Below the pieces are notes generated by a model, which searched no databases, was not told the DNA's origin, and saw nothing but the letters and a program-made list of their open reading frames with translations. A stretch of 63,965 nucleotides of DNA, the filler included, from Basidioascus undulatus (Eukaryota): NCBI GenBank assembly GCA_000826855.1. It is 3 parts of 3 records of this genome, joined end to end, with 100 filler letters (N's around TTAATTAATTAA, not from the genome) between each part and the next. Parts side by side here need not be neighbours in the genome. Positions count along the whole stretch, not along the records: positions 42,767 to 63,965 come from JTLS01000340.1; 2 more parts are not named here. One strand, written 5' to 3'. Position numbers and translations under genes: made by a program. Within the stretch, counting starts at the first letter, position 1, and each line of letters starts with the position of its first letter. This document shows positions 8,742-48,045 of the stretch, in pieces.

Positions 8742-11700
8742 TCACATAGCCGAGGTTGCTATACCATACGCCGAGCCGTCCATACCCTGGACATCGACGG
8801 AGCGCGGTCAAGGTCTCGTCGAAGTGGCCGCGGCAAAGGCATCCTCTTACCCGACAGATCAATCCGAACGTTTCTGAAGCCTCCTTCACCTTCCGGAGCG
8901 AACGCGAGCTGCGGCGAAATAGTCAGCAGATGAGCAGCCTTCCCGGTTCGGATGGAGGCAAACGTACCCAACGACCGCCTTGATGAACTTGTCCTTCGCT
9001 TCGCGCGTTGCCCGCGGCACAGGGAAGCCGTCCTGAGTAGTTCACTCGGTTCAGCATCACGACTGCCTGCGAGAAAATAATGACGTACCGGTTGCAGCAC
9101 GCCTTCGAGCCACGCCTTGCCCTCGCCCTGCAGCTTGACGAGGACGTTGTAGAGCAGCTCGGCGAGGACGGGGACCTGGCTGCGTGGAGAATGGCCGGCG
9201 ATGCCGACGACGACCGCTTGCAGGATCTGCGGACCCCGCGCCTGAAGGAGGTTGTCAAGCGGCGGCAGGACTTCCGGTGCAAGAGCGCGGGTGTTGCAGA
9301 TGGTCACAGTCTGCGGGTGTAAATTGTCAGCCTGCTGCGGGGTCCGGACAAGCGAGTGAGATGTACGGACCAGGAAGTCGGCGGCCGCTTTGAGCGAGAA
9401 ACGCTCTTGGACGCTGAGCGCGGTAGTGGCGAAGAGGAAGAGGTTGTCCAGTAAAGTCTGCGGTAGCGCGACGAGAGCGAGCGGGAAGTGCCGGGCGACC
9501 ATCGAAGCGAAAGGGAAGAAGTTTTGGACGATGTCCGGATTCTGACCTCCCCATAAATTGAAAACATGAGCAATGATACGCGATGAGAAGTATCGGAAGG
9601 CGCACCTCCTCCATGGCAGGCAGCCCCGTCAGCACGCTGGCAGCGCCCGTCCACACCCGATCCACGGCCGACCCGACCATCTCCGCCACGGCAGTCTCCT
9701 GCGTGGCAGCGGCACCGGCCGGCCCGGACCTCGCTAGGACGCCAAGTCGGTTAATGAGAGATGCAGCGAGACTGAGCCAGATAGCTGTGGGCGAACGAGC
9801 GATGGCGGAGCAGACGGCGTCGAGCAAAGGCGGTACGGTGAGAGTGAGAAGGGTAGGCTCGAGTGGGGATACCGTGAGCGATCTGAGCAGGTCGCTGAGG
9901 GCCTGTTTGTAAAAAAGACGTCAGTATAAGCCAACCCATAACGTTGAACACTTCCACGGACCAAGGAGACTTCGACGTCGGCCGGCCAGACCTCCGCGAT
10001 CCTCGCGCTAGCCGCGACAATGGCTTCGCGGACTGAAGACAATTGCGGATCAGCCCGAGCGGCTTCCACAGCGGCGTCTGCACCGTCGGAGGGCTCGAGG
10101 TCGTCATCGTCGACAGCCGCCAAGCCCTTCGATACAGCGAAGAGGTCGGTGAGGGCTTGTATCGTCGCGAGCCGCGCGACTTCCGGATTCTGCAAAAAAA
10201 CACATGTGAGCTTTTGTGGAATGCCGGTTTGTTCGACGAGCGACGAACTTGACCGGGATGTCGAAGCGCGTTGATAAGCTGACTGACGACGGGCTCGACG
10301 ATCGTGAGCAGCGGACTGACGGCGTCGGCGACTGGCAGCGCCTGCACGACGCTGACGATGCTCTGGAGGACCTTGCCGCGCTCTTCCGGCGGCACGTTAC
10401 CGCCGAGATTCGCGTGAAGCTCGCCAAAGGCGGCTATGTGCTGCGTGAGGTGCGTCCGGCATTCGTTACAGAGCGCGCGCAGGGCGGATGCTGCGGCAGA
10501 GGCGAGGCGGGTGGAGAGCGCGGGGACGACGTAGGAGAGGGTTGGCATGAGGAGCGAGGGGTGGTTCCGTAGTTGAGGGGAGTAGGAGTCTGCGAGAAAT
10601 GGACGCAAAAATTTGTGAGCAGAGTAGCGAGGTAGATCTTCGAAGCGAAGCGATGTACCAATGAGGAGAAGGGACGTCAGGCGGACGCGGGTATCGCCCG
10701 TCGCCGGCAGCTTGCCGAGGATATCTGCGCCGAGCAAGCGGGGAATGTACACGCTCTCGTCCTCGGGTATAGCTTCCTGGATGCTTCGGAGACATTGCAG
10801 CGTCGCCTCGACATCCTACCGCGACACGCACTAGTCAGAAATGCTGGACGCCTTCCTGTACAGGTAGACTTTAACGCACCTCCCAAGAAGATCCGGAGCC
10901 GACCGTGGCGAGCTCTTGCTCAAGAGTCGAGATGAGAGAGCTGAGCATCTCTTCCCGGAGGAGGTAGTACGCGGCGATGAGCGTGTCCGCGACAACGGTC
11001 CGGTAGCTCTTGAACGCGCTCTTTGAGGCTGGAGGGAGTAATTGAGCTTTCATCAGCATCCTTCAGTGCCAGAGGGGCGGACAAAACCTACACGCGGTCC
11101 ACGAGCTGAGCACGGTTGCCTCGGGCCACTTGATCTTAGCCCTCAACCGCACGACCAGGTCGGCGAAGACCTCGCGCGCGATCGCCCAGCCGGGACTGTA
11201 CTTGTCGCCGATGATCTCGGGCGAGTCGCACAGCGCTTCTTGAAGAAGATACCACAGCTCGAGGGAGATCTAGCGTCGGTACGAAGTGTCGGCCAGAAGT
11301 TCAGGACTACACTCCACGGCGTGTTTTCCGGACGTACCTCGCTGACGTCCTCATCCTGACCAGGATAGCCGGGGAAGCCAGTGAGGCTGAGAGCCAGCCG
11401 AAGGAGGTGTTGTACGGCTGGAGAGGTGAGGTTGGTGGCAATGTAAGGAGCAGAGTGGTCCCCGATAGCCGTGATGAGCTTGACGAGCGCCTGCGTGTTG
11501 TCGTCGGTAAGCTCCGCTGCAGGCGAAGCATGTCAGCCTGCCGCGGGGAAGCTGGAGTACAGAAAAGCGGGCAGCGTCTTACCCTCAAGCGAGTTCTGAA
11601 TGACGCTCATCACGAGCGGCCCCTCGCAGATGCCAAGCATGGCGCGGCTAATCTCGGTTGCTTTCAAGCCGGAGGTTGCCCATCCGCGACCGAGGACGTC

Positions 11701-45575: not shown

Positions 45576-46558
45576 GTTGCTGCAATCAGCCATAATACCT
45601 CAATCTCGCAACACATGCAACAAATTTCTCATTCAATGAAATGCCAAGGTTACGTACCAGTAGTCCATAAGGGAAGCATTCAATCAAACACAACTAGTTC
45701 TCAGTACGCGCACCTCATTAAAGGCAGGGAGTGGACAGTCACTGCTCCTTATTTCGCTTGCTGTTGCCTTAGATACACCCTGGCGGAGGTTTGGAAGGAG
45801 TGCGTACACGCCAAAGAAAAATAAGTGATACCCGTCGATGACCGGCAGGGACACCTCAAACAGGGAGACTGAAACCACATCTGTCATTGTGGGAGATGCC
45901 AACAAAGTGCATTAAACAAAAGATAAGTGAGTAGAGCGCAACAACTTCGTTTGCACCGGTAGGTAGTCCGACTACTACGGTCTTCGCCGCCGGCACACCT
46001 AATCACCCTAGATCACTCACATCAACCTCCCAAGGCAGCGATTCACTCTCACAAACACACGTTTCCAAAGCTCTACATCTTGCTGCACCCGCATTCCCCT
46101 CTTCACGCTAGGAGGCAGGCGAATCAGCGAAGCTCCTCAGCTAGGCAGAATCTCGTCTCACTTTCCCACAAAGCACCGACACCCACTGTTTACCCCGCCG
46201 AAAAGACGCCGAAGGAGGCTACACGCAAAGTTCTGACGGACAGCGACCTGCGCTTGCTCGCGGATTCACTACGTGCGAGTTGGAAAGCGCAAGGGCGCTG
46301 GGGCACTGCTTGACCAGCGCCCAGCGCGCACCACCGCCGCCCCACTCACACCCGCGCCAGACCAGGCACAGCACAGACCAGACCACATGCCCACGACGCA
46401 CGCACGCTCTAGAAAAGCAATGCCTTCCCTTCATCTCTCCCGATCTCCTCCCACCGCATTCCTCCAATCTCTCTCGCTCCCTCCTCGCACCTCAACTCCT
46501 CCTTCCACACACGATCCAACTCCAACGATGCCCCATTTTATGTGCTCTTGACGAGCGT

Positions 46559-48045
46559 CTAGACGAGGCGGGCAAAAATCTTGGGCGCGGCGCAGGCGTC
46601 GACGGCGTGGAGGAGGCTGTGCGGGGCGAGCGAGCGAGCAGGCGGGGGACAGAGCCGGGGTTAGCGATCCCTGCTATTCGCACCCAATAAGGAAGGAAGG
46701 AGGAAAGGAGGGGAACGAGGGGGTAAGGGAGGAGGGGGAGGCCGGAGGACATACTGGACTGTTCGTGCGTCGCGCGGGGTGGGGGAGGGAGTTAGTGGGA
46801 GTTGGAGGGAAAGGGAAGGGGGAAAGGGTGGTCGGGGAACGTACACCTGTTGCGGGGAGGGGAGGGCGGGATGGTCAGTGGCTGATCGTTAAATTGAAGG
46901 AGATCGGGGAAGGGAAAGAAGGAAGGGAAGTAAGAAGGAAGACGGGGATGGGAAGGGGGGAGACAGAAGGTCGGAAAATTCGGGCCGCAGGCAAAAATAA
47001 CGCGAGCAAGGCGGCGTGCGGCGGGCGCAGAAGAGGAGAAGGAAAAGAAACTGCGCAAGCGGAAGGGAAGAAGGAAAATGGAAGGGAAGACGACGCACAT
47101 CTCCTCAACGCAGTCCTCGCCCTTGAAGCCGTTGCCCTCCTCGACGCGCTTCGCGCACTCGAGGTAGTGGTGCTTGAGCGGCGCGATCTTCGGGGAGGCC
47201 TCGCACTCTGCAGCGAGCGCGAGCGAGCCGGCGGGCGGAGCGAGCGGGTGGGGGGGCGAAAAGTGAGTTGGTTGGTTGGTAGGTCGATCGGTCGAACGGG
47301 ACGGGGGCAGGGGGTGGCAGGAAGGCGTCGTTTGGGCGGTCGGGTGAAGGAGGAGTTGGTTCGGCGAGCGGGGTGTCGGTGTCGGTGCGAGTGGTGTAAA
47401 GGTGGGCGGGGAGAGCGGGGTGAGGGGGAAGGACAGGGGCCATGGGAGGGTAATGAGGGGGGAAGGAGGAAGGCGAGGGCGAGGGGTGGAGGAAGAAGGT
47501 CAGTGCGGTGTTCGAGAGCATGGGAGCGGACAAAGGGAAAGAGAAAGATATACCCTCGCGGATGGCGGGGAAGATCTGGCGGGAGAAGAGCGGGAGGGAG
47601 GGCGTCAGTAAGAGTCCTCGGACCGGTGAGTGCGCGCGTGTGCGGATCGATCAACGGGGCTTTTCCACCCGAACATGAAGCACATCGTCGCGCTGCCGAC
47701 GGTGTATCCTCCCCGGCGCTGTGAGACCCATGCGTCGCGTCCAGCTCGCTACCAACCCACCACCCACCGCCTGCCGCCCATCTCCGATCCCCCTTCCCCT
47801 TCCCCCCTTCCCCGCTCGCCGCCTTTCCCGTCCCATCCCACATGCTTACGCCCACGCCCACGCAGACTCACGTCCTCCGGCTCCTCCTCCTCCTCCTCCT
47901 CCTCCTCCTCCTCCTCAGCAGGCTCCTCCGCCTTCTCCTCCTTAGCGGGCGCAGCGTCCTCCGCCTTGTCGTTGGACTCGGGAGCAGCGGGCTTCTCGTC
48001 CGCGTAGACGGTCGAGGGCGCGAAGAGCGAGGCGAGGAAGGACAT
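46559..48045 (-). CDS. QCR6: cytochrome bc1 complex subunit 6 (hinge protein), 6 exons
   Basis: Exons 48045-47872, 47575-47554, 47207-47099, 46846-46845, 46758-46755 and ~46616-46559 give MSFLASLFAPSTVYADE..poly-E..PEDIFPAIREECEASPKIAPLKHHYLECAKRVEEGNGFKGEDCVEEMFHLLHAVDACAAPKIFARLV*. Confidence 0.93.

Follow-up and report, generated by a model that had tools for sequence, protein, structure and literature searches.

We found that the QCR6 gene of Basidioascus undulatus very probably contains three U2-type introns within a stretch of only six coding bases. The introns leave two consecutive coding exons, one of 2 nt (GT) and one of 4 nt (TCCA), and both are most likely constitutive. The gene is on the minus strand of the window, that is, the whole 63,965-nt stretch of DNA (filler included) that was analysed, joined from three records of assembly GCA_000826855.1. 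An initial annotation, made from the sequence alone, had drawn attention to the consecutive GT and TCCA modules. This observation was confirmed: the sequence, coordinates and splice sites agree to the base.

The QCR6 gene

We identified the gene as QCR6 because exon 3 alone matches both the Pfam family UCR_hinge (PF02320; 41 bits with a gathering cut-off of 27.2, E = 2e-10, profile positions 10-44 of 65) and the solved bc1 subunit 6 of S. pombe (chain 8q1b_F, E = 0.004). The six exons (Table 1) join to 369 nt, that is, 122 codons and a stop, with no internal stop codon. An acidic N-terminal stretch is present upstream of the hinge domain: exon 1 is rich in Glu and Asp and contains a run of 12 Glu. 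This acidic N-terminus and the Cys-containing C-terminal domain are common to the window gene and the hinge subunit (QCR6, or UQCRH) represented by S. pombe and Pfam. The protein itself is ordinary, and the structure of the gene is the point of interest.

The named proteins nearest to exon 3 are all from Ustilaginomycotina (Kalmanozyma, 69% identity; Meira, 66%; Tilletiaria, 63%). When exon 3 was lengthened by 15 nt of intron, to 40 amino acids, a word-based search of proteins gave no candidate.

Table 1. Predicted features of QCR6 and of one other gene in the window (positions count along the whole window)
Feature	Coordinates	Strand	Length (nt)	Details
QCR6 exon 1	47872..48045	-		ATG at 48045-48043; N-terminal and acidic Glu-rich region; donor GTGAGT
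QCR6 intron 1	47576..47871	-	296	GTGAGT...CCAG; TACTGAC 29 nt from 3' end
QCR6 exon 2	47554..47575	-	22	IFPAIRE and base 1 of next codon
QCR6 intron 2	47208..47553	-	346	GTATAT...GCAG
QCR6 exon 3	47099..47207	-	109	CEASPK...GEDCVEE and AT of Met codon
QCR6 intron a	46847..47098	-	252	GTGCGT...ACAG; branch A of CACTGAC at 46875
2-nt microexon GT	46845..46846	-	2	base 3 of Met and base 1 of Phe
QCR6 intron b	46759..46844	-	86	GTACGT...ACAG; branch A of CACTAAC at 46792
4-nt microexon TCCA	46755..46758	-	4	bases 2-3 of Phe and bases 1-2 of His
QCR6 intron c	46617..46754	-	138	GTATGT...ACAG; branch A of CGCTAAC at 46661
QCR6 last coding exon	46559..46616	-		C (His base 3), LLHAVDACAAPKIFARLV and TAG; stop at 46561-46559
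Importin-13-like gene	8759..10815	-		two long open frames

Intron 2 has some features of its own. Its donor is weak, and its sole AG is the terminal one. A stretch of 292 nt separates the only YTRAY motif, CACTGAC, from the 3' end, and a weaker CTCAC is found about 55 nt before the 3' end. Intron 2 may combine a distant branch point with a long AG-exclusion zone.

Two stop-free frames overlap QCR6, one on the plus strand (46552-47724, 390 codons) and one on the minus strand (46875-47867, 330 codons). We rejected both as genes; they are by-products of pyrimidine-rich introns. Elsewhere in the window, two long open frames match repeat domains of importin-13/transportin-3 (PF18806, PF24140), and this region is a predicted importin-13-like gene. 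All of the named matches to its exon (14/14) are from Agaricomycetes, at 41-46% identity. Together with the exon 3 matches, this points to a basidiomycete, perhaps closer to Ustilaginomycotina.

Splice signals and reading frame at the microexons

Exon 3 ends GAGGAGAT at 47099 and is followed by the donor GTGCGT, starting at 47098. From there to the last exon are 482 nt of pyrimidine-rich DNA with eight AG dinucleotides, as counted by eye, two of which carry the microexon modules. The first module is ACAG/GT/GTACGT, with GT at 46846-46845, and the second is ACAG/TCCA/GTATGT, with TCCA at 46758-46755 (slashes mark splice junctions). The last acceptor is ACAG/CCTCCTCCAC, and the last coding exon starts at 46616 with C CTC CTC CAC. 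The branch motifs CACTGAC, CACTAAC and CGCTAAC are 28, 33 and 44 nt upstream of the acceptor AGs of introns a, b and c, respectively. That is, each microexon has its own AG acceptor, an upstream branch site and its own GT donor. The initial annotation had described the sites in this way, and the CTRAC motifs and the comparison with 80 related loci (below) agree with it.

Dinucleotide-preserving shuffles of the 480 nt from the donor to the last exon never generated the pattern AG/NT/GT...AG/TNCA/GT (0/5,000).

Both microexons are needed to keep the frame and the conserved residues. Joining AT, GT, TCCA and C would give ATG TTC CAC, which encodes Met-Phe-His of the conserved EExFH helix. Skipping only GT or only TCCA causes a frameshift and a long aberrant tail. 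If both are skipped, the product stays in frame, Ile replaces Met-Phe-His and two residues are lost. These translated products bear out what the initial annotation had said about single and double skips.

Enumeration of splice paths

We enumerated every splice path in which exon 3 closes at a GT or GC near its end, the acceptor is an AG, no intron is shorter than 45 nt and no more than two internal exons, each of 1-30 nt, are included. There were 3,184 such paths, and 139 of them were in frame to the conserved C-terminus. Exactly two gave Met-Phe-His. One path includes both microexons. The other uses a GC donor at 47096 (GCGTCG) and includes the TCCA exon only.

We scored the products with a family HMM made from eight complete relatives, none of which rests on a splice inference made here. 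The Met-Phe-His product ranked first of 2,475 distinct products with 89.0 bits; the runner-up had 79.6 bits. Two other candidates were rejected, each with a poor donor: a 6-nt exon GTGTAC (product MCT, 79.6 bits) and the donor GTCGTC combined with the GT exon (product MCV, 79.0 bits). With both microexons in the mRNA, the spacing between Cys98 and Cys112 is 13 residues, the same as in the related protein P0036 (below). Only with both is the C-terminal part in register with the relatives (EE-x-F/Y-H and the 13-residue Cys spacing). The top family-profile score and the comparison with the 80 loci strongly support the earlier proposal that the two microexons restore Met-Phe-His.

The microexons in 80 related loci

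The initial annotation had also pointed to a comparison of gene structure across basidiomycetes. We made this comparison on 80 metagenome loci and found that the microexon layout is common to most of them. A HMMER search with exon 3 gave 33 proteins, and the alignment of these was used to fetch the 80 contig loci. (The nominal top protein match, P0003, was treated as spurious: it is a repeat protein of 1,137 aa and has no stretch that aligns.) The loci represent 50 distinct exon-3 peptides with pairwise identities of 46-97% (median 66%) that fall into nine groups at 80%. Loci were sorted by systematic chain searches, and the misses were inspected by hand.

An xT/GT donor was found straight after the EE codons in 79 of the 80 loci (xT being AT, CT or TT), at the same phase-2 position as the window donor at 47098. 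These donors include GTAAGT, GTGAGT, GTACGT and GTGCGT. The 2-nt exon was present in 78 loci, and 66 of the 80 had the 4-nt exon too. The full chain, xT/gt..ag/NT/gt..ag/TCCA or TTCA/gt..ag/Y plus codons, was found in 65 loci. One more locus (L001) has both microexons on a contig that ends ahead of the next exon. Twelve loci have the 2-nt exon and are without intron c; that is, TCCA is fused to the next exon. One locus (L007) is intronless at the junction and reads CTC TTC CAC without interruption, and one contig (L045) is too short for a call. Eight loci were viewed in full, and all eight had AG/NN/GT, then AG/TCCA or TTCA/GT, then AG/C or T, followed by ATG ATG CAC.

The three intron positions are thus conserved in many divergent relatives, and only synonymous or conservative bases vary. 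Among the 50 distinct peptides, the 2-nt exon is AT in 23, GT in 15, CT in 9 and TT in 3; together with the two bases before it, it encodes Leu, Met, Phe or Ile. Of the 4-nt exons, 48 are TCCA and 2 are TTCA, and this difference is synonymous because it lies in the Phe codon. Loci L031 and L032 have the same exon-3 peptide with CT in one and TT in the other, which is also synonymous. The invariant positions are invariant partly by construction, because the search patterns accepted a 2-nt exon only if it ended in T and a 4-nt exon only if it matched TNCA. The variation at the unconstrained positions of the microexons is a genuine observation. In short, the position of the 2-nt exon is conserved (78/80) and its sequence varies only as the codon permits.

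All 50 distinct relatives have G at +5 and T at +6 of the donor that follows the 2-nt exon. Median lengths of introns a, b and c in the relatives are 56, 72 and 56 nt; the introns in the window are longer (252, 86 and 138 nt). In 10,000 dinucleotide-preserving shuffles of the loci, the full chain did not occur, the 2-nt-only chain occurred 4 times and the microexon pair occurred 60 times.

The loci differ in two other ways. In the 12 loci without intron c, the intron before the 2-nt exon is 29 nt (L009 and L011) or 38-39 nt (the other ten: L008, L015, L017-L019, L021, L027 and L031-L033). These short first introns still have GTAYGT, a CTRAC motif and AG, and are very short for fungal spliceosomal introns. 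Separately, 65 of the 80 loci have an additional intron (...CAC TGT GCG GAC/GTACGT...CAG/GCT TGC...) where the last exon of the window is undivided. In L010, for example, this intron is ~190-290 nt downstream of exon 3. It is absent from the window lineage.

Transcript-type proteins and public gene models

Four of the related proteins, P0036 and P0037 (Logan), P0038 (JGI) and P0039 (ENA), are full-length and uninterrupted and read ...GEDCVEELFH[ML]MHCVDNC... through the junction. Gene calls on contigs of this type are simply open reading frames: P0034, for example, is a read-through of DNA like that of L009 and L011, and P0035 is a read-through of L024-like DNA. We infer from the uninterrupted frames, and not from run metadata, that these four proteins (P0036-P0039) derive from spliced RNA. 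The residues of P0005, a read-through of the Ustilaginaceae type, are consistent with a gene that has intron b alone.

Many of the 33 matched proteins end or go astray right past CVEE and one more residue, which suggests that gene callers break at this same junction. Clustering at 90% puts P0036 together with a genome model of Gloeophyllum trabeum, which stops within the intron, at EELC. Among the 14 named public QCR6 models, 4 are intact at the junction and 10 are broken. The intact models are those of Obba rivulosa (EELYHMMHC) and of Kalmanozyma, Meira and Tilletiaria (EEFFHL.HC). The broken ones (P0012, P0016, P0017, P0023, P0025, P0028, P0041, P0042, P0043 and P0059) fail in several ways. 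The model of Phlebopus sp. FC_14 (P0041) is without Phe-His (EEL-MMHC), that of Heliocybe sulcata has a 22-residue insertion at the junction, and that of Pterulicium gracile jumps to the C-terminus. The Tulasnella and Gloeophyllum models are truncated at the junction, and five Mycena models continue into the intron.

Alternative readings of the junction

It is possible to reach Met-Phe-His with the 4-nt exon alone. Exon 3 would then end GAGGAGATGT at the GC donor at 47096, one 338-nt GC-AG intron would extend to the TCCA acceptor, and ACAG/GT/GTACGT would be a coincidence or a relic. The mRNA and protein, and with them the top score, are identical to those of the two-microexon path because the 2-nt exon, GT, is the same as the first two bases of intron a. 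Therefore, cDNA cannot separate the two paths, and the cDNA test that the initial annotation had offered does not prove the 2-nt exon in this gene. Among the relatives, a similar bypass is allowed only in L073, L074 and L075, where exon 3 is followed by AT/GTGTGT and a second, canonical GT donor (ATGT/GTGTTT) 2 nt downstream could give the same mRNA. We nevertheless consider the GC donor very improbable. GCGTCG is without the consensus at +4 to +6, whereas the donor at 47098, GTGCGT, carries the G and T expected at +5 and +6. The donor is at the phase-2 position in 79 of the 80 relatives, and in 35 of the 50 distinct relatives the exon is AT, CT or TT, which a shift of the donor cannot supply. 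In L010, for example, TT/GTAAGT...CAG/AT/GTGAGT has two bases that no donor shift can give. In addition, a branch site with AG, GT and GTACGT at the homologous position did not arise in any of the 5,000 window shuffles. The module at 46875-46839 is the positional homologue of the 2-nt exon modules of the relatives. By homology and by signal strength, the relatives with AT, CT and TT exons settle the question in favor of the predicted 2-nt exon.

If the main mRNA skipped both microexons, the protein would read CVEE-Ile-LLH and be two residues shorter. This product is in frame and corresponds to the public annotation of Phlebopus sp. FC_14. It scored 74.1 bits with the same family HMM, compared to 89.0 bits with both microexons, ranked 18th of 2,475, and leaves 11 instead of 13 residues between the two Cys. 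The residues x-F/Y-H are kept in all four transcript-type relatives and in the intact models, and skipping would leave the coding-type conservation of both microexons over 65 loci unexplained. We think it extremely unlikely that this is the main mRNA. The pair could also be a regulated gate, in which single skips, or zero-length use of AG/GT, produce frameshifted transcripts that tune the output of hinge subunit. This is compatible with two constitutive microexons. A single skip does cause a frameshift and a long aberrant tail, and ACAG/GT does resemble a recursive site. However, the AG/GT look is absent from 35 of the 50 distinct relatives, the 12 loci without intron c and L007, without all three introns, belong to lineages that do without part or all of the arrangement, and the donor regenerated by zero-length use, GTGTAC, is weak compared to GTACGT. 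A gate of this kind seems to us decidedly unlikely. The initial annotation had noted that AG/GT mimics a zero-length recursive site. We take the resemblance to be incidental because most relatives have AT or CT there and because zero-length use shifts the frame; we do not class the site as a recursive (zero-length) splice site. Its further suggestion, a splicing control point for complex III, gained no support: the layout looks constitutive and inherited, and some lineages are without the introns.

A model for splicing of QCR6

We favor two constitutive microexons. QCR6 would be nuclear and would encode the acidic hinge subunit of complex III of the respiratory chain in a GC-rich basidiomycete, and the three introns at the junction are probably ordinary U2-type GT-AG introns that leave the exons GT and TCCA within the six-base span. 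U1 contacts a donor from position -3 of the exon to position +6 of the intron. Only 2 nt separate the acceptor of intron a from the donor of intron b, and U1 bound to donor b would sit over the acceptor AG of intron a. This would prevent the 2 nt from being defined as an exon, and each intron would be recognized across itself. This is intron definition, which fits the short introns of fungi, and introns a and b would probably be removed one after the other. If intron a were removed first, donor b would become ATGT/GTACGT; if intron b were removed first, acceptor a would become ACAG/GTTCCA. Both appear to be usable.

The layout is probably an inherited cluster of introns and not a peculiarity of the window genome, with intron c or all three introns lost in some lineages. 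If the window lineage is indeed closer to Ustilaginomycotina, the cluster would have to be older than the separation of that lineage from the Agaricomycetes. It is possible to go further and suppose that the cluster predates the split between the Ustilaginomycotina-like lineage of the window and the Agaricomycetes and has been retained because the introns matter, for example if the hinge subunit, and with it the assembly of complex III, depended on splicing precise enough for a 2-nt exon to be included. We consider this improbable. If true, no tandem of near-minimal exons known in fungi would be more widely conserved, and the pair would serve as a natural reporter of splicing fidelity.

The pair is useful in other ways. 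The rule xT/gt..ag/NT/gt..ag/TCCA/gt.. would mend QCR6 gene models across basidiomycetes. A 2-nt exon with a 4-nt exon ~70 nt farther on, in dozens of divergent fungi with small introns, makes a compact natural test case that bears on minimum exon length, intron definition and the order of intron removal. There is also a point of method: a 2-nt exon with the sequence GT is beyond proof by cDNA alone, and relatives with AT, CT or TT resolve it.

Comparison with known microexons

A literature search found no paper that ties QCR6 or the hinge protein to microexons, and none of the papers retrieved on basidiomycete microexons and introns was about QCR6 by title or abstract. Very short exons are known from another basidiomycete. 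In the long-read annotation of Coprinopsis cinerea, 50 genes have a total of 57 exons of 2 nt; a further 13 exons measure 1 nt and 27 measure 3 nt, and leaving out the ultra-short exons breaks gene models (PMC12230235). The tandem of 2-nt and 4-nt exons and its conservation across lineages are not in the material examined from that study, and the supplements searched do not mention hinge, UCR_hinge or PF02320.

Plants have conserved 1-nt microexons in APC11 and VPS55, and adjacent microexons of 5 nt and 12 nt have been described in rice (PMC8831610, PMC4674806). The 1-nt plant microexons resemble the predicted 2-nt exon of QCR6 in being constitutive, shorter than 3 nt, long conserved, and flanked by strong donors (GTRAGT). 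Plant microexons are also often unannotated and have been lost by intron loss in some lineages, and the adjacent pair has been validated. They differ in kingdom and in the genes affected, and the QCR6 exons total 6 nt, with three introns within two codons.

Recursive sites and the stwintrons of fungi also have abutting 3' and 5' signals and need consecutive reactions (PMC5639578, PMC5587772). In those cases, either nothing is kept between the signals or a signal is interrupted by an inner intron. In contrast, QCR6 keeps 2 nt, and its predicted primary transcript contains every signal whole. In the genomic DNA, none of the nine signals of introns a, b and c is interrupted, which sets these introns apart from stwintrons. 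Exons of 1-2 nt are already published, and the QCR6 pair is a new and unusually well-conserved case.
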